Positions 373-60,402 of a stretch of 64,000 nucleotides of DNA are shown one piece after another (within the stretch, counting starts at the first letter, position 1; the number at the start of each line of letters is the position of its first letter). Source of the stretch: Armatimonadota bacterium. Lineage in GTDB: Bacteria > Armatimonadota > Fervidibacteria > Fervidibacterales > Thermosaccharophagaceae. The notes under the pieces are model-generated. The model saw only the letters and a program-made list of their open reading frames with translations. It had not been told where the DNA came from and did not search any database. The position numbers were made by a program, and so were the translations under genes. The stretch covers positions 13,072-77,071 of the forward strand of contig JANXAS010000006.1 in the NCBI GenBank assembly GCA_025062195.1, in the 5' to 3' direction.

Positions 373-495
373 TTAGGTAGTCACGCAGTTTACGCTGTTT
401 TTATGGGCGGACGATAGCCCTCCATAAATGCTGACAGAAGCGCATGATATGAGTGGCTTAATAGCTGCCCCTAAATCCAACTGCGTAACCCCTAA
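373..495 (+). repeat. Copy A of the dispersed ~120-nt inverted-arm structured repeat family
   Basis: Aligns block for block with 14625..14745. Arms are TTAGGTAGTCACGCAGTT and AACTGCGTAACCCCTAA; the centre reads ...ATGATATGAGTGGCTTAATAGCTGCCCC.... It is intergenic between exbD and the tonB-like gene. The 75-aa ORF 373..600(-) laid over it is rejected. Confidence 0.7.
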
Positions 496-13447: not shown

Positions 13448-14599
13448 ATGCCAAGACGCCAAAAGGGCGAAGAGGGGCAACAAAGCTTTATAGATGTTGA
13501 GGTGACACAAACAGAATCAACGACACGAGCGCAAGTTAACGGTGAGAAACTTGAGGCGCTCGAGAGCACAATAAGCCGCATTGAAAAGAGGTTTGGGAAG
13601 GGCAGCATAATGCGCCTAAGTGACCAACCGACAAAGATGAGAGTTGATGTGATACCGACGGGGTCAATAGCGCTTGATATTGCTACAGGTATCGGCGGCA
13701 TACCGAGAGGACGAATAACGGAGATATTCGGACCGGAGGGCTCCGGTAAGACTACCTTGGCATACCACATCATCGCGGAGGCACAAAAGATGGGCGGCAT
13801 TGCCGCCTTCATAGATGCGGAGCATGCTATGGACAGAAATTATGTTGTGGCATTGGGGATTGACCTTGACAGGCTCTACATCTCGCAGCCCGATTCCGGT
13901 GAGCAAGCGCTTGAGATTGCCGATGAGCTTGTGCGCAGCGGCGCAATTGATGTGCTTGTGATTGACTCGGTTGCTGCACTCGTCCCGAGAGCCGAGCTTG
14001 AGGGCGAGATGGGCGACCAACACATGGGCTTGCAGGCAAGGCTTATGTCACAGGCATTGCGCAAGCTTGCCGGCTCAATAAATCGCTCTCGGACCGCAGC
14101 TGTGCTGACGAACCAAGTCCGTGAGAAAATCGGGATAATGTTTGGCAGCCCTGAGGTGACACCCGGCGGTAGGGCGTTGAAATTCTGGGCGTCACTCAGG
14201 TTGAGGATAAGCAAGGAAGATTCAATTCGCTCCGGAAACGAAATTGTAGGGCACATTTGCACCGTTAAGGTCGTTAAGAATAAGCTTGCGCCGCCATTCC
14301 GTGACGCCGGCTTTGAAATACTTTTCGGAAAGGGCATCTGCCGATATAGCAACATCTTAGATGTGGCAACGCAGCTTGAGATAGTCACAAAGGTAGGCAC
14401 TTGGTATAGTTACAATGAAGAGCGCCTTGGACAAGGGCGCGAGAATGCATGGCGCTACCTTGAGCAGCATCCGGAGTTAGCAGCCGAGATTGAATTACAA
14501 ATACGAAGGAAAAGAGGGTTGCCAATTCCGCCGTGGCTTGAGGAGCTTGCAAGCGGGCGCAAAGAGGCTGCGCCTGTAACCGGTGCTGCTGAAGGTTAG
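13448..14599 (+). CDS. recA: Recombinase RecA
   Basis: Motifs [13 protein letters not shown], the Walker A in [29 protein letters not shown] and LKFWASLRL are present. GGAGGTG lies 10 nt upstream of the ATG. It carries ~25 extra N-terminal residues compared with typical RecA. Confidence 0.95.
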
Positions 14600-14624
14600 G
14601 TGCGACTTTGAGGCTCTATACCGA

Positions 14625-14745
14625 TAGGAGTTGCGCAGTTGTTGTTTTGTGTGGCGGATGATAGTCCGCCAAACAGACGCCGACAAAAATGAATGATGCG
14701 GGCGGCTTAACAGCTGCCCTCCACACTCAACTGTGTAACTCCTAA
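14625..14745 (+). repeat. Copy B (best-folding exemplar) of the ~120-nt structured repeat family
   Basis: 5' arm AGGAGTTGCGCAGTTG and 3' arm CAACTGTGTAACTCCT pair at 16/16 positions (2 G-U). Internal hairpins are GGCGGA-TGATAG-TCCGCC and GGGCGGC-TTAACA-GCTGCCC. It fills the recA-recX spacer in the sense orientation. Confidence 0.75.
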
Positions 14746-14809
14746 CCGAATCAAATGACCAACACAGATACTCTTTTCCAAGATGCGCAAACTGTCAGGT
14801 GGGTTGCTG

Positions 14810-19509: not shown

Positions 19510-20769
19510 ATGGATAGGGTGCGAGTTGCTGCTGTGGGTGCAGGTGGCATATTTCGCGGCGCACATCTTCCGTCATATCCGCAAATACACGAGGCTAAGC
19601 TTGTTGCGCTTTGCGACATAAGCGAGGCAAGCTTGACGGAATCACTCCACGCCGCAAGAAGGATTTATGAGAGACAAGCAGAGCAGCTAAAAGAGTCAGG
19701 CAGGGGTGATATTGCGGAGCAGCTGCTAAAAGATGTTGAGGAGCTAAAGCTATACCGGGATTACGACCGGATGCTGCAAGAGATAAAGCCAGACATTGTG
19801 GACATATGCACGATGCCAGATACGCACGCCAAGGTCGCGATTGCCTCTTTAAAGTCCGGCGCTCATGTGATGTGCGAAAAGCCTATGGCGAGGACATGGC
19901 TTGAATGCGCCGAAGTTATTGAAGCCGTTGAGGAGAGCGGGCGGTTCTATCAACACAACGAGAACTGGATTTACGACCCGCTATACCACACGCTTCGCAG
20001 GCTTGTTCAAATGGGTGCATTTGGCGAATTGCAACTTGTCTTCATAAGCTGTGCGCACCAAGGTCCGGAGAACAGGACTGCATTTTGGGATCCGATGATT
20101 AACGGTGGCGGAGCAATGGTTGATATGGCTGTGCATGCATTTACTACGGCATGGTTCCTTGCCGGGTTCAACATGAAGCCAGTTTGGGTTAAGGCTGCTG
20201 AGCCAAACGGCATATGCATCAAGATACGAGAGAGAATTATTGCCAACACGCCAAGGAACATCGAGGTTGAAGATGATGCACATATACTTGTGCATTTTGA
20301 GGAGCCAAATAGCGGCAAGTGGTCTAATGCGCATGTTGAGGGTTCGTGGAGTGGCAAAGACGCAATTGACGGATTGTTTATAGGCACGCAAGCTGTGGCT
20401 CGCTGCAAATTCGTTGACGGCAGACCACAAATTGAGCTTACAGACACCTTTGGCAAACAGCATTTGGTTGAGGCTATCGGTCCAAACTGGACACATTGGC
20501 CTTCAAGCTTTTACGGCGAAATAAGGACGATGATTGAGTGCGTGCTCCAAAACAGAAAGCCACCTTGCGACCACATAATTGGCGCTGACACACAAGCTGC
20601 GATGGGCGCTGCATACCTCTCGCAACTTGAGGGCATGAGGAAAGTGACACTTGAGGAATACAAGGAGTGGGCTTTGAGCATAAAGAGGAAAGCTAAGAGA
20701 AATGCAAGCGAAGCGCTCATCCGTGAGCAACTGAAGGCGTTGAAGGTTGGTTTGGGGCAGGGCACATAA
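19510..20769 (+). CDS. Gfo/Idh/MocA-family oxidoreductase
   Basis: N-terminal Rossmann motif VRVAAVGAGGIFRGAHLPSY and the EKP motif (VMCEKPMA). Confidence 0.85.
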   Translation: MDRVRVAAVGAGGIFRGAHLPSYPQIHEAKLVALCDISEASLTESLHAARRIYERQAEQLKESGRGDIAEQLLKDVEELKLYRDYDRMLQEIKPDIVDICTMPDTHAKVAIASLKSGAHVMCEKPMARTWLECAEVIEAVEESGRFYQHNENWIYDPLYHTLRRLVQMGAFGELQLVFISCAHQGPENRTAFWDPMINGGGAMVDMAVHAFTTAWFLAGFNMKPVWVKAAEPNGICIKIRERIIANTPRNIEVEDDAHILVHFEEPNSGKWSNAHVEGSWSGKDAIDGLFIGTQAVARCKFVDGRPQIELTDTFGKQHLVEAIGPNWTHWPSSFYGEIRTMIECVLQNRKPPCDHIIGADTQAAMGAAYLSQLEGMRKVTLEEYKEWALSIKRKAKRNASEALIREQLKALKVGLGQGT

Positions 20770-42553: not shown

Positions 42554-42733
42554 AGTCTAACGCCTCCCTGTCTAAAGGCGTGAAGCCAAAGTAGAGAGCC
42601 ATGAGGGTCACACATGGCTTGAGGTATCCCATTGCCAGCACGACATGCTTAAGACAAGCCTTCGCGCTACCATTGTAACTCAAACCGCAGGGTATAAGCA
42701 AACTGGCAGCGAAAAAACTATATCAGGCTGATA

Positions 42734-43126
42734 GATAATCAGTTTCACTTTTTGCACTACCAAGTCAAGTTCAATGTTGAGTGCAATGTTCTGAATTCAA
42801 AGTTTGCTTCGGAGGGCGAGGCTATTGCCGAACCGAAAAATCTGCGTGCCATGTAGGGGCAGGAAAAGCCTGTCCGAAAAATTCGGCAAGCCAGTAGGCT
42901 TGCCCTACGAGGACAAAACGAAAATTCTTGGCAAACCAAGGTTGTGCCATTAAAGATGACGGAAAAAATCGGAAGGCGAGGCTACTGCCGAGCCGAAAAG
43001 AAAATTTTCCTCGCCGTCTAAAGACGGCGCAAGAGAATTCGTCACTGACCATGGGCTAAAGCCCATAGCATGGTTTTGAAAAGCGCATACCAACAATATT
43101 TGAAGCAAAGAGCGAAACTGATTATC
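42734..43126. repeat. Inverted-repeat-bracketed array of short hairpins (MITE-like or structured-RNA locus)
   Basis: 22-nt arms GATAATCAGTTTCACTTTTTGC (42734..42755) and GCAAAGAGCGAAACTGATTATC (43105..43126) are 20/22 complementary. The interior holds several hairpins and a 32-nt direct repeat (42809..42840 vs 42969..43000, 28/32). Confidence 0.6.
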
Positions 43127-43151
43127 CGACAGACATCAGGGGGTTAATCCG

Positions 43152-43775: not shown

Positions 43776-44142
43776 GGTCCGTTTTTAATCCACCTACACC
43801 TCAACTTTGAGTGTGATGCTCCACACCGAGCTAAAAACTTCAGGCTCACCAATAGGTTCGCCCGCTCAATTTCGGATGGCGATGCCCCCCGCCGAATCTT
43901 AAAGAAGTGAACCCAATGGGAAGCCTGCCCTCAGAGCGCATCACCACAATGTTCACACCCGTTTACACTACCGTCTCGGCAAGAAATGTATGGCGCATGA
44001 AGCGCAGGTGGATTTCTTCTGAAGGGCTGTTGTCCGTCCATAAGGAGAAAACCACCGCTGCCTAAAGACCGCGCTCATGAAAAACCACAAGTTAATATGG
44101 GCTATAGCTCATAACAATGGATCGGAAAAAGTGTTCACTGAA

Positions 44143-44212
44143 GGCGTTTTGTGTAAAGGCGTTTTGTGTAAAGGCGCTTTGTGTAAAGGCGCTTTGTGTA
44201 AAGGCGTTTTTG
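44143..44212. repeat. 15-bp tandem repeat GGCG(T/C)TTTGTGTAAA, four full units plus a partial fifth
   Basis: Units at 44143, 44158, 44173 and 44188; the first two have T and the last two C at position 5. A partial unit starts at 44203. The repeat lies in the convergent spacer between the amzA-like gene and the 330-aa membrane protein gene. Confidence 0.9.
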
Positions 44213-44272
44213 CTACGGACAATCGTCCGCCCTCACGAAGTAGAACCAACTTCGCAACCCCTCTTGATTGCA

Positions 44273-45768: not shown

Positions 45769-46303
45769 CCCTTCCCTCCGAGTGTAATCATGCCAATTAA
45801 CAATTGTAATCACTTGCCCAATCGGCTATCCAATTGCTGCCGGACTGACCGGATGTCACGCAAACCGTTAACGGTTAAAATAGCACGAGCAAAGTCTCAC
45901 ACGCAACTTGAAACCATTGCGACGCAAATACCGAGAGTGATGAAAGGTGACACCCAAACTATCCATAGCAGGGATTACTCAGCTGAATGTATGGGTGGCT
46001 GCTAATCTGCAGCGCATATTTTGCTTTCTGGCGAGCTGTCGTCCACACCGCTGCAAATGAAGATGGCTGTGCAAGCCCTGCGCAATTTAACCCCCCTAAC
46101 GATGCACGGTGCGATGGCAGACTCATTCACCAAAAGTTTTTGTAGGCAGGATATCCACGCTGCATTTTTGTGGCTCGGGCAAACTGTCTCCAAGCAGTTG
46201 CACCTGTGCTTGTAATAAATTGAGCGAGCTTATTCCCATGTCGGGTTTTGGGTTAGCGGCAGCGTGGTATAAACATGTTGGTGCTAACGAGTGTCTAAAG
46301 AAG

Positions 46304-47954: not shown

Positions 47955-48029
47955 TGGAGCTGGCGGCGGGATTTGAACCCGCGACCTGGGGATTACAAAT
48001 CCCCCGCTCTGCCGCTGAGCTACACCAGC
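47955..48029 (-). tRNA. tRNA-Thr (anticodon UGU), CCA encoded
   Basis: Hand-folded cloverleaf from the reverse complement: GCTGGTG TA GCTC AGCGGCA GAGC G GGGGA TTTGTAA TCCCC AGGTC GCGGG TTCAAAT CCCGC CGCCAGC T CCA. All four stems pair, with one G-U in the acceptor stem. Confidence 0.9.
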
Positions 48030-48120: not shown

Positions 48121-48230
48121 TTGGGAGTTACGCTCTTGGATTCGGGCAGCTTTAAATCCGCCCAAATTTGTCACTATTTGTGGCTTCAACCTGCCCTCGC
48201 AAAAACGACACTAACTGCCTACCCCCTATT
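48121..48230 (-). repeat. Copy C (divergent) of the ~120-nt structured repeat family
   Basis: The minus strand reads ...GGGCGGATTTAAAGCTGCCCGAATCCAAGAGCGTAACTCCCAACCGAAAT. This matches copy B's GGGCGGCTTAACAGCTGCCC...GTAACTCCTAACCGAAT. The 5' arm and hairpin 1 are degenerate. It lies 92 nt from the tRNA-Thr. Confidence 0.55.
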
Positions 48231-54473: not shown

Positions 54474-55136
54474 ATGATGCGCAGCAATAGCGCATTGACT
54501 TCAAAGAGTCGTAGAGCAATCGGTTTCACATTAATAGAGCTGCTTGTGGTGATTGCCATAATCGCCATCCTGGCAGCGATACTATTTCCGGTGTTTGCAA
54601 GGGCGAGGGAGAAAGCAAGGACAACAAGCTGCACGAACAACCTGCGCCAACTCGGCATGGGCACAATTATGTATGCTCAAGATTATGACGAGATGTTGCC
54701 CATCGGATATAGAGGACCAACATGGTGCGCCGACTTCGCTTCATGGAAGCAGCTCATCCTGCCGTATGTGAAAAACACACAGCTTTATGTGTGCCCATCA
54801 ACTGGCGAAAGGTATCCATGCCCCGCTGGAAGTCAACTCCCATACACTGCAACTTACGGCGCAAATGCATACTGGAGCGAGAGTGGGATATACGCGCTTT
54901 CCAGGTTTGATCAACCCTCAAGGACATTTCTCATCGGAGAGAACGGTGACGGTGATTGGGTTGTGGAGCCACCACAAGGTCAATGCACAGGTGCTGTTTG
55001 GCCGCAACCTGGCTGGATAGCTTTTCCGCACATTGATGGAAGCGTATGGGCATATGTGGATGGGCATGCAAAGTGGCTTCCTAAGGAGAGGGCTTTTGAG
55101 AACGACTGTTATGAGTGGCGCGTGACCAAGCCGTAG
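54474..55136 (+). CDS. Prepilin-type N-terminal cleavage/methylation domain protein with H-X9-DG motif (DUF1559-like)
   Basis: [33 protein letters not shown] is a type IV pilin-like leader and helix. The C-terminal [12 protein letters not shown] is H-X9-DG. Confidence 0.85.
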
Positions 55137-55222
55137 TGTTTACACAATTGAATTAATGCGGCATTATTAGTAGCGGTATACTGGTGCACAGGTGGAGAAT
55201 ATTTTTGACGGAAGAAAGAGAG

Positions 55223-55261
55223 AGCGCATGCGTTTATAGAGGCGCATGCGCTTTTGTGTTT
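55223..55261 (+). terminator. Rho-independent terminator
   Basis: Perfect 10-bp stem AGCGCATGCG (55223..55232) / CGCATGCGCT (55243..55252) with a 10-nt loop, followed by TTTGTGTTT. It lies 87 nt after the prepilin-like gene stop. Confidence 0.65.
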
Positions 55262-55357
55262 GCGGTGGGCACTTAACCTTATGCCGAGTAGCGCGGCATC
55301 ATGTTAAATGATGACCCATCTGAATCCTCAGACGCCGTCGTGCGCAAATTGAAGAGT

Positions 55358-55594
55358 GTGAGTTACGCGGTTGAACATAGAAGCAGCTGTTAAGCTGCCA
55401 GCATCATTCGCTTTTGAATAACACACCGTAAACGACATATCATTCATAAGTGGCTTTAGCCACGAAAACTTATTGGGTGATAAAAGCTCTAACTTGCGGA
55501 TTTACAATTTGCGCCGTTTGCACTATTTGTTTTTGTGGTGGCTTATTGTGGGCTACTGTCAGCACTTACAAGATAATGCAGCTGCGTAACTCCC
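55358..55594 (-). repeat. Copy E (long, ~237 nt variant) of the structured repeat family
   Basis: The 3' part on the minus strand, AATGATGCTGGCAGCTTAACAGCTGCTTCTATGTTCAACCGCGTAACTCAC, matches copies B and D1. A GTGGC-TAAA-GCCAC hairpin replaces hairpin 1. A matching 5' arm GGGAGTTACGCAGCTG lies at 55579..55594. The extent of the element is an inference. Confidence 0.5.
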
Positions 55595-55671
55595 GGAGTT
55601 AGCTAAAGTTGCAGCTCCGAAAGCTACTTGGCAGGTGGGCAAGGTGTTATCCGAGGGGGTGTAGTGAGGTT

Positions 55672-56055
55672 GTGAAAGGAACTATACACGAACTCACAAT
55701 CCAAACCGATCACAAAGAGCAACTGGTGGACATAACTGATGCACTACAAAAACTCATAACTGATGCTGGGTTGGAAGAAGGATTCGTGTGCATCTATGTG
55801 CCTCACACAACTGCGGCTGTGAGCATCCACCGAGATATCTCAGGGGAACACACACCAAAGCTTAACGAGCTGTTACGGCAATTCAATCACATAGTTAGCA
55901 ACTCGCCCGAGTATACCAAAGCTGCTTTGGTCGCACCAACTGAAGTTATTCTTGTTAAGGACGGGAAGTTGCTAATGGGTGATGACCAACGCATCATATT
56001 CTACGAGTTTGACGGGCCAAGGGAAAGGAGAATATATGTCTACTTTTCCCCATAA
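55672..56055 (+). CDS. yjbQ: YjbQ/UPF0047-family protein (secondary thiamine-phosphate synthase-like)
   Basis: ...ITDALQKLITDAGLEEGFVCIYVPHTTAAVSI... is typical of UPF0047. The start is moved to the in-frame GTG at 55672 (GTGAGGT just upstream), giving the usual ~127 aa. The track start is 55609. Confidence 0.8.
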   Translation: MKGTIHELTIQTDHKEQLVDITDALQKLITDAGLEEGFVCIYVPHTTAAVSIHRDISGEHTPKLNELLRQFNHIVSNSPEYTKAALVAPTEVILVKDGKLLMGDDQRIIFYEFDGPRERRIYVYFSP

Positions 56056-56240
56056 ACTTGGCAATATTTTGGCATTGCGAGCCAACTTAGACGAACATAT
56101 GTATGCAGCATAATGTATAAAGAGCATTTTGATCATGAAAGCATGCTATAAGCTTTAGCCATAGCCTTTTATGATTCTTATTATGAACGCCACCTTCAAA
56201 GGACGGAAGAGGCTTGTTGATGCTCTTTACCGTAAAGCTG

Positions 56241-56359
56241 TAGAAGTTACACAGATGACGTTACTTAGTGAGGGTTAACGACAGCCCGCCAAGCACTATT
56301 AAAAGCAAATGATGTGGGCAGCTTGACAGCTATCCCTATACTCATGTGCGTAACTTTTA
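56241..56359 (+). repeat. Copy D1 of the structured repeat family (first of a tandem pair)
   Basis: Arms AGAAGTTACACAGATG / CATGTGCGTAACTTTT; centre ...CAAATGATGTGGGCAGCTTGACAGCTATCCC.... Confidence 0.65.
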
Positions 56360-56364
56360 TGTTA

Positions 56365-56487
56365 AAGGACCTGCGCAGTTGGCGTTGTTTCATGGGGGCA
56401 GATGACGGTCTGCTCGAAAAATCATCGCAAAAAGTTGCTGGTTCGGGCAGATTTCATCCGCTCCCACATTCAACCGCGTAACTCCTA
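56365..56487 (+). repeat. Copy D2 of the structured repeat family (second of a tandem pair)
   Basis: Arms AGGACCTGCGCAGTTG / CAACCGCGTAACTCCT pair at 13/16 positions. Hairpin 1 is GGCAGA-TGACGG-TCTGCT, whose stem differs from copy B by compensatory changes. Confidence 0.7.
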
Positions 56488-57180
56488 TGTTATTGGCGGA
56501 TAATTTTCCTGGGACATGATACAGGCTAAAGCCAGCAGTCATTGACGAAATTTTCTGGGTGCAACCTTTAGAGGGCGAAAATCTCTCACAGGATGAGTTT
56601 AAGCTTGCCGATTTTAGGACACATTTCCCGATGAGTGAAATCTTTCGGCAAGGCAGCAATTATGCCTTACAATTTGTTGCGGCAGTAACCTTGCCCTCCC
56701 ACGCTGCTACGAATTCGGTGATCATTCGTTTTCGCCATTAACGGCTGGCTAAAGCCAGGGGGATGGATCACCATGAAGCAATAGATTTTTGGGCGAAGAG
56801 TTCTATTACGAGAATCGCTCTTTACTACGAACTTTGTTGTTTGAGTTTGTAGTTAGCCACGAAGCGAAAGCGGGGTGGCGAAAAAATTAGTGCGTAGTGC
56901 GATGTAGAGAGTGCAGCCCTGTTTTGCGCTTTGCACTCCGCATTAGCACTTTGTATTTTGTCCGCACTTCTCACTCAGTTACGGCACTCCGCTTAGCTCC
57001 GTGCCTAACTGCGAACCAACAGACTTTAAAGTAAGGAGCGCCGAGAATTTTTTAAAAACGGCATTAATTGTGGCATCTTTGCGGGCAAGCGGTGAGATAA
57101 AAGCCATGTTGTTCGTCAAAAGTTGGCACATTTGTGGAAGTGCTGCAGAAAAATAAGAGTTGGTGGGGGGTGTAAAATTA

Positions 57181-58743
57181 ATGCAAGGGAGGGAGCAAGC
57201 ATCCCTGGAAGAAATTTGGGAAAAATCTCTGAAATTGTTGCAAGAGCGTGTCAGTGGTGCCGCATACAAAAGTTGGATGCGCTCAATGCGCCCAACACGA
57301 TTGCAAGATAGTATATTGATAATCACAGTTCCAAATCAGTTTACTAAAGATTTGCTCGAATCAAGATATAAAGATTCAATAGAAAAGGCAATCAGCGAGG
57401 TGATTGGAAGACCTGTCAGCATTCAATTTTGCCTCGGCATAACGCAACTTGAACTGCCCTTGAACTTTTCTGGGGAAGATTTTGGGAAAAAAACGGAAAA
57501 GCTTCAACGGGAGGGAATGGAAATGGAGGAAAAAAACCAACAACATGAGAAAACTAATGATAAAACTCCGCAAGATTTTGAGGCTGTAGTTGGCAGATCT
57601 TCAGGAAAGGAATTGAGGGAACATGTTTTATCAATCTCAACTCACTATCACTCAAATGGTTCATTTGATGATATACCAACAGATTTCAGTTCAATACCAT
57701 TAAATCCAAAGTATACATTTGAACGATTTGTTGTAGGAAGAAGCAATTCGCTAAGTCATGCTGCTGCGTGGAGTGTGGCTCATCACCCTGCGGAAAAGTA
57801 TAACCCGTTGTTCATCTACGGGGGTGTTGGTCTGGGCAAAACACATTTAATGCACGCTATTGGGCACAAAGTTAGGGAAATATATCCGAACCTTCGTGTA
57901 GCGTATGTCTCTGGCGAGACATTTCTCTTCCATGTGGTAACTGCTATAAGGGAGGATAAAACGGCAGAATTCAGGCGAACATACAGAGGCGTTGATGTAT
58001 GGCTCGTTGATGATATTCAGTTTATTGCCTCCGCTGAAAGGACAGAGGTTGAATTCTTTCACATATTTAACGAACTTTATGACACAAATAGGCAGATTGT
58101 CATTTGCAGTGATCGCCCGCCTAAGGAATTAAACCTCGGTGAAGCAAGACTGCGTTCAAGATTTGAATGGGGATTGATAACCGAAATCACCCCGCCAGAC
58201 CTTGAACACAGAATTGCAATTTTGCAAAGAAAAGCCCGGGAGGAAAATGTCAATCTTCCCGAGGATGTTGCGTTATTTATGGCACAATCAATACAAACTA
58301 ACATTAGAGTCCTTGAGGGAGCGTTAACGAGGGTGATAGCATATGCATCGTTGATTGGAAAGCCAATCACACTTGAAATAGCAAGGGAGGGATTGAGGGA
58401 TTATTGTGATTTAAGGCAATACAACATAGAACTAAGGCACATACTCAAAGTTGTGGCAGAACACTTCAACATTACAGTTGAAGATCTGCGCAGCGCGAAG
58501 CGAAATAGAAGCCTTGTTCAACCGAGGCATATCGCCATGTATTTAGCCAGGGAAATGACCACAGAGTCGCTATCAGACATAGGCAGAGCTTTTGGAAAAG
58601 ACCACACATCGGTTATATATGCTTATGAAAAAATTCGGGAAGAAATTCACACTAATCAGGCTGCTGCAAGGCTTATTGATGAATTAAAAGCAAGGGTGGA
58701 GCATACAGCACAGGCTGAATCACTTCAGCAACAGAAGCTGTGA
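57181..58743 (+). CDS. dnaA: Chromosomal replication initiator DnaA
   Basis: N-terminal domain I (IWEKSLKLLQERVSGAAYKSWM), AAA+ Walker A GGVGLGKTHL, Walker B WLVDDIQF, and domain IV (...HIAMYLAREMTTESLSDIGRAFGKDHTSVIYAYEKI). The start is trimmed to the ATG at 57181. Confidence 0.95.
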   Translation: MQGREQASLEEIWEKSLKLLQERVSGAAYKSWMRSMRPTRLQDSILIITVPNQFTKDLLESRYKDSIEKAISEVIGRPVSIQFCLGITQLELPLNFSGEDFGKKTEKLQREGMEMEEKNQQHEKTNDKTPQDFEAVVGRSSGKELREHVLSISTHYHSNGSFDDIPTDFSSIPLNPKYTFERFVVGRSNSLSHAAAWSVAHHPAEKYNPLFIYGGVGLGKTHLMHAIGHKVREIYPNLRVAYVSGETFLFHVVTAIREDKTAEFRRTYRGVDVWLVDDIQFIASAERTEVEFFHIFNELYDTNRQIVICSDRPPKELNLGEARLRSRFEWGLITEITPPDLEHRIAILQRKAREENVNLPEDVALFMAQSIQTNIRVLEGALTRVIAYASLIGKPITLEIAREGLRDYCDLRQYNIELRHILKVVAEHFNITVEDLRSAKRNRSLVQPRHIAMYLAREMTTESLSDIGRAFGKDHTSVIYAYEKIREEIHTNQAAARLIDELKARVEHTAQAESLQQQKL

Positions 58744-58749
58744 AAAACT

Positions 58750-59135
58750 TGTGGAAAAGATGTGAATAAATTGTGGAAAAGGTGTTAAAAAACTGTGAGG
58801 AGGATGTGAAAATTGGTTAAAAAATACCGCTATTTTTAATCAAGCTGTGGAAAAGTTGTGGAATTTCCACAGTTGACAAGTTCAGATTTTGTGAATTAGT
58901 TTGTGAAAAAAATGTGGATAACTTGTGAAATGGGTGTGGAATACTCATTGGCACAACTTATTACGGAAAGTTATTCACAGGCTGTGGAAAACTGATCAAA
59001 GTTTTCCACAGGTGGTTGTGGAAAACTCGAGGGAATTTCTCCGGCAAAACTCGGGAAAAAACACAGAAACCAAATTTTTTTCACAATTTTCACACTGCTA
59101 ATAATAACAACAATAAGACGGAGTAATAATTAAAG
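58750..59135. other. oriC candidate: DnaA-box cluster plus AT-rich unwinding region
   Basis: There are six perfect TGTGGAAAA/TTTTCCACA boxes (58750, 58772, 58846, 58983, 59002 reverse, 59017) and one perfect TGTGGATAA (58913). A palindromic TGTGGAATTTCCACA lies at 58857..58871. TGTGGAATA (58935), TTATTCACA (58971) and several TGTGAAWWW half-strength sites are also present. An AT-rich tract CTAATAATAACAACAATAAGACGGAGTAATAATTAAAG follows at about 59098..59135. Confidence 0.8.
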
Positions 59136-59244
59136 CGATGCAGTTAGCGTGAGACGGATAGAATTTCACGGAGTTGTAAAATTTGAAGTTGACAGAAGTC
59201 AGGCTGTGTAATATTCAAAACGCTCAAACGGGAGGGTGAAGAAG

Positions 59245-60402
59245 ATGAAGGTCGTATGCAACAGCTCAATGCTGGTTGACGGAGTGCGTGCAGCAGCACG
59301 AGTGGTTAGTCAAAGAGCAACATTGCCAATACTGCAAAACATAAAAATTGAGGCAGTGCTGGGTGAAGAGGGCGGAAAAATGCTGATAACCGGAACTGAT
59401 ATGAACACATGCGTGAAAAAAGCTATACCGGTAGAAGAGATTGAAGTTGAAGGAGCAACAACAGTGCCAGCAAAGCTTTTCCTGGAACTTGTAGAACAAT
59501 TCAGAGAGGCAAAACGAATCTCATTAGAGTTAAGAGGCAATCTTTTATTCCTTCGGGATGAAGACTCGGAATCCGAACATTCGCTTCCCACTGTTCCAGC
59601 TGATGAGTTCCCACTTATTCCGGAGTTGGCAAAGCCTCAAGTATGTGAGATTAGTCAAAGCATGCTGCGCAAAATGATAAGACGATCAGCATTTGCTGCT
59701 GCTACTGAAGAGAGTGCCGGAGTTTGCACAGGTATACTTGTTGAGATTGAGGGTGATAAACTCACATTAGTAGCAACAGATACACATCGCATGTCCGTTG
59801 TCCGAACAAGCATTCCGACTCCTATGCAAGAGCGGGTTGAGGCAATAATTCCTGCCACAGTTATGCGAGAGATACACCGTCTGCTTAGCGATGCTGATGA
59901 ACCTGTCAAGCTTGCTATTGATGTCACGCACATGCAGATTGAAACAGGGGATATGCAATGCATAACCCTCAAGATGCAGGGTCAATTCCCAAACTATAAG
60001 CGAGTTATACCAACGCAATTTGCGCGCAGGTTAGTAATTGACACAAAAGAATTCATCACCAAAATAAAGCGAGTTGCGCTGCACGCAAACGAAGATATTC
60101 CGCAAATCGTGATGAGAATCAGCAAAGATAAATTGATTATCGTTGCCGAGGATCCAGAAGCCGGGCGAGGAAAGGGGAAGGAAGTGTTGTTACCGATTGA
60201 ATATGAGGGAGAACCGATAATCATCGCATTCAATGCCGATTTCATGGCTGAATTTCTATCAAATGTTGAAAGCCCAACAACACTCGTGGAAATGAATGAA
60301 AATCGCCAACCAGTTGTTATGCGACCAACCTTGGCAAGTGAAGGTGAAGAGTGGATTTACATTGCTATGCCAATGCAACCGCCTGAAGAAACAGAATTTT
60401 GA
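59245..60402 (+). CDS. dnaN: DNA polymerase III beta sliding clamp
   Basis: ~385 aa with three-domain length and periodicity. The N-terminus MKVVCNSSMLVDGVRAAARVVSQRATLPILQNIKIEA is typical. It lies between dnaA and recF. The ATG at 59245 sits 8 nt after GGAGGG; the track uses the GTG at 59236. Confidence 0.95.
   Translation: MKVVCNSSMLVDGVRAAARVVSQRATLPILQNIKIEAVLGEEGGKMLITGTDMNTCVKKAIPVEEIEVEGATTVPAKLFLELVEQFREAKRISLELRGNLLFLRDEDSESEHSLPTVPADEFPLIPELAKPQVCEISQSMLRKMIRRSAFAAATEESAGVCTGILVEIEGDKLTLVATDTHRMSVVRTSIPTPMQERVEAIIPATVMREIHRLLSDADEPVKLAIDVTHMQIETGDMQCITLKMQGQFPNYKRVIPTQFARRLVIDTKEFITKIKRVALHANEDIPQIVMRISKDKLIIVAEDPEAGRGKGKEVLLPIEYEGEPIIIAFNADFMAEFLSNVESPTTLVEMNENRQPVVMRPTLASEGEEWIYIAMPMQPPEETEF

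Follow-up and report, generated by a model that had tools for sequence, protein, structure and literature searches.

RESULTS

Genes and repeats in the 2 kb upstream of dnaA

Upstream of dnaA, positions 55137 to 57180 of the window (by which we mean the whole 64-kb stretch of DNA that was analyzed) hold a single supportable gene, yjbQ (UPF0047), a public gene call on the plus strand at 55672 to 56055 that matched Pfam family PF01894 with 73 bits. It was the sole open reading frame in these 2 kb with any family match, in agreement with the preliminary description of this DNA. Further upstream, 3′ of a prepilin-like gene, lies a plus-strand hairpin followed by a T-run (55223 to 55262), with perfect 10-nt arms at 55223 to 55232 and 55243 to 55252. 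This hairpin is conserved at two related loci (L024 and L025) and is likely to be a terminator that lies outside the repeat family described below.

The region also carries three copies of a repeat family ~120 nt in length, situated 0.7 to 1.8 kb 5′ of the dnaA start. The first, E (55357 to 55595), is a long, decayed copy on the minus strand; its place and strand had been described correctly, and its length is 239 nt rather than the ~237 nt first given. It matched our covariance model, R1, at 30.9 bits on the minus strand (E = 1.4e-5) and was not a member of the R1 training set. A regular-expression search that permitted up to 3 mismatches found 3 mismatches in the terminal repeat at each end. 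The interior of E holds ~120 extra nucleotides, which, sought as a known repeat nested within E, had no match in any sequence compared, and no target duplication was recognizable in its flanks. Neither L025 nor L024 has the stretch corresponding to E at the homologous site.

The other two copies, D1 (56241 to 56359; 119 nt) and D2 (56365 to 56487; 123 nt), scored 86 and 97.6 bits with R1, of which both were training members. As had been stated, both lie on the plus strand and are exactly 5 nt apart, with D2 directly 3′ of D1. The sequence TGTTA fills the whole gap between them (56360 to 56364) and, as read from the flank, recurs directly after D2 (56488 to 56492), these being the left and right halves of a D2 target site duplication. 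The target duplication of D1 is gone, its flanks (AGCTG and TGTTA) being mismatched. The TIRs of D2 agree with the family consensus at 13/17 and 16/17 positions; D1 and E are more decayed. A second dispersed repeat, F2 (56827 to 57016, plus strand), which is unrelated to this family, lies in the yjbQ-dnaA spacer. F2 is 68.6% identical over 191 nt (E = 1e−17) to positions 2381 to 2554 of locus L070, which also contains a partial copy at 303 to 338.

Across one end of E, at 55579 to 55620, a 3′-arm-like string is immediately followed by a 5′-arm-like string (GCAGCTGCGTAACTCC C GGAGTTAGCTAAAGTTGCAGCTCC), where it had been reported to be. The hairpin that this junction could form is no better folded than shuffled sequence (z = −0.9). 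The part that adjoins the end of E, GAGTTAGCTAAAGTTG (55596 to 55613, plus strand), agrees by eye with the family end at ~12/15 positions if a 2-nt indel is permitted, and R1 had no match there; this part is a remnant of a solo end or else ancestral flanking sequence. The homologous place in L025 reads GAGTGAGCC..CAAAG. The junction may consist of two abutted elements, or of one duplicated arm.

Other copies of the family in the window

With the covariance model we counted seven solid copies and one probable copy in the 64-kb window, where six had been recognized; a second assembly has a further copy 8 kb beyond the left edge of the window. All eight window copies are intergenic, at about one copy per kilobase of spacer. 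They are 107 to 239 nt long, are found on both strands, and are ~65% identical to one another, and the open reading frames that overlap them had no Pfam match. Allowing up to 2 mismatches, the end motif CAACYGYGTAACYCC occurred nine times in the window, far above the 0.4 expected by chance.

The best-preserved copy, c2 (14625 to 14744, plus strand; 120 nt; R1 109.5 bits), matches the consensus of the TIRs at 16/17 positions at each end and is flanked by an exact target duplication, ACCGA (14620 to 14624 and 14745 to 14749). Copy c1 (374 to 494, plus strand; 121 nt; R1 83.4 bits) has flanks that agree at 4/5 positions (AAAAT and AAACT). Copy c4 (48122 to 48228, minus strand; 107 nt; R1 54.5 bits), which adjoins a tRNA-Thr gene (47955 to 48029), had no target duplication in its flanks. 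A degenerate copy absent from the first list, c5 (45969 to 46080, minus strand), scored 38.5 bits (E = 1.7e-7) and was not used in training. The probable, degenerate copy is c3 (44126 to 44263, plus strand), which has the end motif at 44247 with 2 mismatches, contains five 15-nt units in tandem, and matched R1 weakly (14.8 bits on the minus strand at 44156 to 44263; 8.1 bits on the plus strand at 44129 to 44252).

When folded as DNA and compared with shuffled sequence, c2 gave a z score of −5.9 and D2 one of −2.5, whereas D1 (−0.8) and E (+0.35) fold like shuffled sequence. D1 and E are old, decayed copies.

The repeats are copies of a noncoding MITE

The family has TIRs of 17 bp, TAGGAGTTACGCAGTTG ... 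CAACTGCGTAACTCCTA; in the consensus of the MITEs from relatives, the GGACTT form stands at the 5′ end and the GGAGTT form at the 3′ end. Among 134 related elements that we sampled, 56 were flanked by exact 5-bp repeats, in register 0 only, against ~0.13 expected, and 40 unrelated interiors were found behind the same ends. In the window itself, the exact target duplications are those of c2 (ACCGA) and D2 (TGTTA). We considered TA as the target duplication, as in IS630-like elements, because TA stands at both ends, and rejected it: this TA belongs to the inverted repeat, and the duplicated nucleotides are the 5 that lie beyond it. The window repeats are copies of a noncoding MITE, a nonautonomous DNA transposon: they have TIRs and a target duplication of fixed length, they are small, noncoding, and multicopy, and related genomes are without them. 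As no target duplication is recognizable for E or D1, it is their membership of the family and their absence from relatives that speak for them as independent insertions.

The ends of the family match those of an IS701 family insertion sequence

A BLAST query with the ends only, run against plasmids, recovered full-length insertion sequences (IS) of an ISMesi2-like type; the whole cyanobacterial-type MITE, run against plasmids, gave noise only. One end of the IS is TAGGAGTTACGCAGTTG and the other is TAGGACTTACGCAGTTG, identical or nearly identical to the family ends; the MITE consensus from relatives, with its GGACTT and GGAGTT forms, thus has one of each IS end. Two 1,092-bp copies of ISMesi2 lie on plasmid pMESIL01 of Allomeiothermus silvanus (L147, 20002 to 21093 and 38401 to 39492), with the same ends and with the 5-bp duplications CTGCT and ATTAA, and a 1,139-bp IS with the same ends and the duplication ACCAT lies on a plasmid of Methanosarcina barkeri (L146, 9967 to 11105). 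The Methanosarcina transposase scored 398 bits against NCBIfam model NF049921 (transpos_IS701_2, IS701 family), the cutoff of which is 250, and that of A. silvanus is annotated as belonging to the IS701-like ISMesi2 family. The window family is therefore probably IS701 derived, by two marks: its ends match those of a full-length, transposase-encoding IS, and its target duplication has the same length (5 bp). At two further loci (L004 and L083), transposase fragments adjoin the same end.

Unlike the ISMesi2-like IS, which are 1,092 to 1,139 bp long and encode a transposase of 330 to 343 amino acids, the window elements are 107 to 239 nt long and have no open reading frame, and their interiors had no detected similarity to the IS. 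A tblastn search of ~77 kb of this organism (the window plus older loci) found no ISMesi2-like transposase. Nor did we find a full-length partner at the metagenome loci, where we looked for paired ends 0.4 to 6 kb apart and for open reading frames beside solo ends; between separate MITEs there were ordinary genes only. The transposase itself falls into at least 6,776 protein clusters and is 58 to 80% identical among named homologues that span bacterial and archaeal phyla.

The dnaA-proximal copies are absent from relatives and away from the DnaA boxes

The preliminary description regarded the copies as conspicuously clustered within 2 kb of the origin and offered two explanations, insertion into permissive DNA or a role tied to dnaA/oriC. 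A DnaA-box cluster that is probably the core of oriC lies 3′ of dnaA, in the dnaA-dnaN spacer (58750 to 59025). This segment contains 9 of the 18 matches to TTATCCACA in the window (up to 1 mismatch), and four 22-nt repeats lie at 58735 to 58930; by the same search, no DnaA box was present in 55137 to 57180. E, D1, and D2 are thus 2.3 to 3.4 kb from the boxes, farther than had been thought. The oriC of Bacillus subtilis is bipartite, with DnaA-box clusters flanking dnaA. What the window copies share with that arrangement is a position 5′ of dnaA, whereas the boxes here are confined to the dnaA-dnaN spacer. Nor was the clustering significant once intergenic length was counted: the probability that at least 3 of 8 copies fall in this region was 0.087, and the probability that any span of 2,044 nt holds at least 3 copies was 0.34.

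The gene order is shared by three relatives, the DnaA proteins of syntenic relatives being 71 to 84% identical, whose yjbQ-dnaA spacers are 25 (L022), 145, and 260 nt long, compared with 1,125 nt in the window; prepilin-yjbQ spacers of syntenic relatives are 125 and 226 nt. Short, copy-free yjbQ-dnaA spacers of this kind had been named beforehand as one finding that would tell against the initial suggestion. The spacers of the syntenic relatives (L022 to L025) had no R1 match with an E value below 1, and the copies are absent from the same place in all of them, the flanks being too diverged for an exact empty site to be read. Positions 56077 to 57157 had no similarity to the spacers of the relatives, that is, this region is unconserved.

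An origin role for E, D1, and D2 is not supported, given the relatives without copies, the lack of a DnaA box in the region, and the nonsignificant enrichment. Insertion into permissive DNA, by contrast, is supported by the 5-bp duplications, the IS701-type ends, the intergenic location of the copies, and the relatives that do not have them. In this lineage, a long spacer next to dnaA that is filled with repeats should not be counted as part of oriC.

DISCUSSION

E, D1, and D2 are very probably worn copies of a MITE mobilized by an IS701 family transposase, lying in spare intergenic DNA and unrelated to the origin. The 17-bp ends would be the sites at which the transposase of an ISMesi2-like IS701 insertion sequence binds and cleaves. 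A transposase encoded elsewhere, presumably in this genome and acting in trans, would excise or copy the element and insert it with a 5-bp duplication. The copies would have landed at different times in nonessential spacers on both sides of yjbQ, D2 later than D1 and into a TGTTA beside the D1 end, giving the appearance of a head-to-tail pair. Such insertions, along with at least one more dispersed repeat (F2), would have lengthened a yjbQ-dnaA spacer of originally tens or hundreds of nucleotides to 1,125 nt. The copies would then lie close to dnaA on account of the spare intergenic DNA available there and not because they serve the origin.

A more ambitious interpretation would treat the interchangeable interiors as selected structured modules within a pan-prokaryotic MITE superfamily, in which the yjbQ-dnaA copies have rewired dnaA transcription, for instance by insulating dnaA, beside the origin, against read-through from upstream. 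We consider this improbable. Less probable still is that the copies have simply been co-opted for dnaA/oriC, serving as modules of a promoter, terminator, or insulator type or, by virtue of their DNA structure, affecting initiation. The insertions do separate two genes that are 25 nt apart in L022, so that the transcriptional coupling of yjbQ and dnaA must have changed; E contains one weak terminator-like hairpin; and the internal hairpins of the family carry compensatory changes (7 pairs, compared with 2.8 ± 1.2 in shuffles), from which their structure may be under selection. Against co-option, the relatives do without the copies, the region has no DnaA boxes, and structure has been lost from D1 and E. 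Sites resembling promoters or terminators are no commoner than in shuffled sequence, and the family occupies at least seven unrelated spacers.

That the repeats are not mobile DNA but genes of a structured small RNA family, or a riboregulator, is very unlikely. The strong folding of intact copies (z of about −6) and the two conserved internal hairpins with their few compensatory pairs would suit such a function, but an RNA gene would not account for exact 5-bp target duplications, for ends identical to those of an IS, or for 40 unrelated interiors sharing these ends; the copies moreover lie on both strands and are decayed. Searches against Rfam 15, extended to E ≤ 1, gave no match to the family: only the tRNA-Thr gene reached the gathering score in the window, and nothing meaningful appeared at E ≤ 1 in 55000 to 59400.

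That D1 and D2 arose by local tandem duplication of one copy, through unequal crossing-over or slippage, is scarcely credible: they share a strand, are 5 nt apart, and are each directly followed by TATGTTA (7 nt), but D2 has TGTTA to its left and to its right, exactly as expected of a 5-bp target duplication, the left flank of D1 (AGCTG) is unrepeated, and on inspection of the alignment D1 and D2 resembled each other no more closely than each resembles c2, ~41 kb away (65 to 69% identity of each to c2). The head-to-tail arrangement first described therefore stands, and the tandem pair becomes a second, independent insertion beside an older copy, the D1-D2 gap being the target duplication of D2. 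We rejected a preference for insertion beside existing ends; there were three abutting pairs in 0.79 Mb, none with a 5-nt gap, and the adjacency of D1 and D2 thus looks like a one-off.

Classical MITEs, such as Correia of Neisseria, Nezha of Anabaena and Nostoc, and MITEAba12, are likewise short, noncoding, and multicopy, with TIRs and target duplications, and are mostly intergenic and stably folding. The window family differs from them in its 5-bp duplication, its IS701-type ends, and the occurrence of these ends in several bacterial phyla and one archaeon. The target duplication of Correia elements is TA. For Nezha, the direct repeat is given as 10 bp (PMC6042816), compared with 5 bp here, and we rejected it as the same family for that reason. 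Bacterial MITEs are believed to be mobilized in trans by the transposase of an IS (PMC3184786). The REP/BIME repeats resemble the window family in being intergenic, hairpin forming, and high in copy number; REPs are single palindromes of 20 to 40 nt without TIRs or target duplications (PMC3733652), whereas the window family has both.

Searches of a collection of papers for the family end sequence and for the name ISMesi2 gave no relevant match, and the family therefore seems to be undescribed, though of a familiar kind. A scan of a genome collection with hairpin 2 and the 3′ end returned 11 stretches, most of them fortuitous hits to a Streptomyces gene, and yielded the first true relatives, L015, L017, and L021. 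A scan of viral contigs gave nine single matches, about the level of chance, one of which (L004) is an IS end. The 17-bp ends occur in Armatimonadota, Chloroflexota, Deinococcota, and Cyanobacteria and on one Methanosarcina plasmid, and they recur across many metagenomes, at at least 120 loci. For annotation, TAGGAGTTACGCAGTTG combined with a 5-bp duplication can serve as the mark of MITEs that are presumably mobilized by ISMesi2-like IS701 transposases.

The three repeat copies upstream of dnaA are decayed MITE insertions

The genes here run accD, a family-2 glycosyltransferase gene, a gene for a prepilin-like DUF1559 protein (54474-55136), yjbQ (55672-56055), dnaA (57181-58743), dnaN, recF and dciA. 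As the preliminary description held, yjbQ is the single supportable gene in 55137-57180, being the sole Pfam match among the ORFs scanned there, and the three repeat copies in that interval are real. We fixed their bounds exactly, placing E at 55357-55595 on the minus strand (239 nt) and D1 (56241-56359) and D2 (56365-56487, 5 nt beyond D1) on the plus strand. All three are decayed MITE insertions of IS701 type and lie in dispensable DNA.

Read with their flanks, elements of this family measure ~120 nt and enclose two hairpins between the inverted ends TAGGAGTTrCGCAGTTG ... CAACyGyGTAACTCCTA. The end motif CAACYGYGTAACYCC (≤2 mismatches) occurs nine times in the window, against 0.4 expected. 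A covariance model of the family, R1, was trained on five copies from the window plus nine of a related lineage and run with filters off. It recovered its training copies, scored E, which lay outside the training set, at 30.9 bits and revealed an additional copy at 45969-46080 on the minus strand (38.5 bits, E = 1.7e-7) that had escaped the first reading. The repeats thus stand, but their number rises from the six originally counted to eight, including a probable degenerate copy, c3 (44126-44263). Five tandem 15-nt units (AAGGCGYTTTGTGTA) within c3, at 44126-44215, form a minisatellite that expanded out of the TTTTGTGT segment of the element. In a second assembly of the same organism (L148), a further copy lies 8 kb left of the window (19666-19790, 54 bits); the public annotation of that assembly has a 75-aa gene at 13973-14200 that overlaps copy c1 (14079-14199) and is probably a spurious call on the MITE.

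5-bp target duplications mark the elements as transposition products

A metagenome scan for the two inner end halves 75 to 105 nt apart returned at least 120 stretches. Among the matches listed we recovered 134 paired elements, which had a median length of 117 nt, formed 40 unrelated interior clusters and were 79-100% conserved at the nine outermost 5′ bases, which the search pattern did not include. Of these 134 elements among the matches listed, 56 lie between exact 5-bp direct repeats (~0.13 by chance), and in other registers there were 15 exact repeats at +1, 3 at +2 and none at −1 to −3 or +3. Because exact 5-bp repeats so far exceed chance, the elements are transposition products with a 5-bp target duplication.

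Full-length partners were found by BLAST of the bare ends against plasmids. Allomeiothermus silvanus pMESIL01 carries two 1092-bp copies, annotated "IS701-like element ISMesi2 family transposase," with ends TAGGAGTTACGCAGTTG / CAACTGCGTAAGTCCTA and 5-bp duplications CTGCT and ATTAA. A Methanosarcina barkeri MS plasmid carries a 1139-bp element (L146 9967-11105) whose ends are the same and whose duplication is ACCAT. The transposase it encodes (330 aa) scored 398 bits against NCBIfam NF049921 (IS701 family) and is 58% identical to that of A. silvanus. At two further loci, fragments of an ISMesi2-like transposase adjoin a matching end. These partners, with their matching ends and 5-bp duplications, argue that the window family is a MITE derived from, or mobilized by, ISMesi2-like IS701-family elements. 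No cognate transposase was seen in the ~77 kb of the organism that was read. An insertion sequence with common 17-bp ends occurs in both a bacterium and an archaeon. Named sources of transposase homologues with 65-80% identity are Deinococcota, Cyanobacteria, Actinobacteria, Thaumarchaeota and an Asgard archaeon, the Thaumarchaeota and Asgard ones being MAGs; together, these occurrences point to a wide spread of the insertion sequence across domains.

Genome records with true MITE copies came from an Armatimonadota MAG (L015, two copies) and a Chloroflexi MAG (L017 and L021). In the related lineage (L015, L043, L078 and others), copies are 90-100% identical to one another, a sign of a recent burst. 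The window copies are only ~65% alike, so that the family there looks old and is probably inactive. It appears to be undescribed, yet is of a well-known kind.

D1 and D2 are separate insertions

The best-kept copy, c2 (14625-14744), matches at 16 of 17 positions at each end, is flanked by ACCGA/ACCGA and folds with z = −5.9. D2 is flanked on both sides by TGTTA (56360-56364 and 56488-56492), and the left TGTTA constitutes the entire D1-D2 gap; D2 therefore inserted into the 5 bp directly after the end of D1. The head-to-tail geometry reported previously is correct, but the TGTTA on both sides of D2 makes the pair two separate insertions, not a tandem duplication of one copy. The alignments are in line with this, since the identity of D1 and of D2 to c2 is only 65-69% and the two appear no nearer to one another than to c2 when the family is aligned. 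The family does not habitually insert next to an existing end: abutting pairs numbered only three in 0.79 Mb, none with a 5-nt gap.

D1 retains no target duplication, and its folding is on a par with that of shuffled sequence (z = −0.8). E shows three mismatches in each end, a fold z of +0.35, no recognizable target duplication and ~120 extra internal nt that matched nothing in any sequence compared. Pairing persists in the internal hairpins, with some compensatory changes (7 pairs versus 2.8 ± 1.2 for shuffles); 93.6% of cells are paired, versus 32-44% with the partner slid. Such pairing may be needed for mobility or may only follow from common descent, and it does not demonstrate an RNA function.

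The TAACTCC/GGAGTTA junction at 55579-55620, noted earlier as resembling two abutting elements or a duplicated arm, is present as described. Its right half, GGAGTTAGCTAAAGTTG, fits an element end at ~12 of 15 positions with a 2-nt indel allowed, and had no R1 hit, element body or partner end; the hairpin has no exceptional stability (z = −0.9). Because the syntenic relative L025 has GAGTGAGCC..CAAAG at the homologous place, ancestral flank may account for some of the resemblance. The right half could be what is left of a solo end, or the match could be coincidental.

The copies lie in permissive DNA rather than at the origin

A role tied to dnaA or oriC, one of the two explanations first offered, is not supported: related spacers are short and lack R1 copies. 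We chose relatives through DnaA homologues at 84, 76 and 71% identity and fetched their contigs, in which the local gene order is preserved over the extent of each contig. In these relatives the yjbQ-dnaA spacers measure 260, 145 and 25 nt, versus 1125 nt in the window, and the prepilin-yjbQ spacers, in contigs covering them, 226 and 125 nt versus 535 nt. R1 found no copy with E < 1 in the relatives' loci (32 kb), an outcome that the preliminary description had put forward as refuting. Similarity to the relatives ends at 55313 and restarts at 55628, which argues that E and its surroundings are an insertion; window positions 56077-57157 had no match in the relatives.

The window has 18 matches to TTATCCACA (≤1 mismatch), 9 of them at 58750-59025 within the dnaA-dnaN spacer and none in 55137-57180. 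The probable oriC core is 58735-59025, in that spacer, with nine DnaA boxes (≤1 mismatch; one perfect, 58913-58921) and four 22-nt repeats. Conservation of this core in the relatives L022 and L024 is partial.

The clustering near dnaA had seemed conspicuous but is unremarkable once intergenic length is considered. Every copy in the window is intergenic, and the two spacers make up 13.9% of its non-copy intergenic DNA; the probability that they hold at least 3 of 8 copies is 0.087, and that of some 2,044-nt span holding at least 3 of 8 random intergenic insertions is 0.34. Insertion into permissive DNA, the other explanation offered, is supported by the IS701-type MITE ends, the 5-bp duplications and the relatives without copies.

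The long yjbQ-dnaA spacer is pieced together from several repeats, in keeping with permissive DNA; an Rfam search of the spacer region found nothing. A second dispersed repeat, F2 (56827-57016), unrelated to the MITE family, is rich in GTGCG/CGCAC inverted motifs and shares 68.6% identity over 191 nt with an intergenic stretch between convergent genes (2381-2554) in L070, a related Armatimonadota-like metagenome contig with a partial second copy at 303-338. A 40-nt stretch at 56814-56852 (ATCGCTCTTTACYACRAACTTTGTTG..) is 85% conserved in related contigs L043 (9514-9552) and L107 (10181-10219), in the latter just upstream of a tRNA-like sequence (judged by eye), and perhaps represents a promoter-type motif or the margin of a further repeat. 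Just upstream of D1, a perfect 10-nt inverted repeat, TAAAGAGCAT/ATGCTCTTTA (56118-56127 / 56220-56229), encloses 92 nt and could mark the ends of yet another small element; GCTCTTTAC is found again at 56817.

The exact 10-mer GGCTAAAGCC occurs four times in the 64 kb versus ~0.1 expected, three times inside the 2-kb region of E, D1 and D2 (55452-55461 on the minus strand, in E's extra segment; 56524-56533 and 56747-56758 on the plus strand) and once at 43054-43063 (plus strand), with a one-mismatch version at 56151 and only 3 occurrences in the other loci (~0.9 Mb). These are hairpin cores whose extended stem differs at each site. The 598-nt spacer at 42554-43151 is another repeat-laden spacer, with one GGCTAAAGCC hairpin, a weak R1 match (42836-42929, 16 bits) and a 31-nt direct repeat (42809-42839 and 42969-42999, 90% identical).
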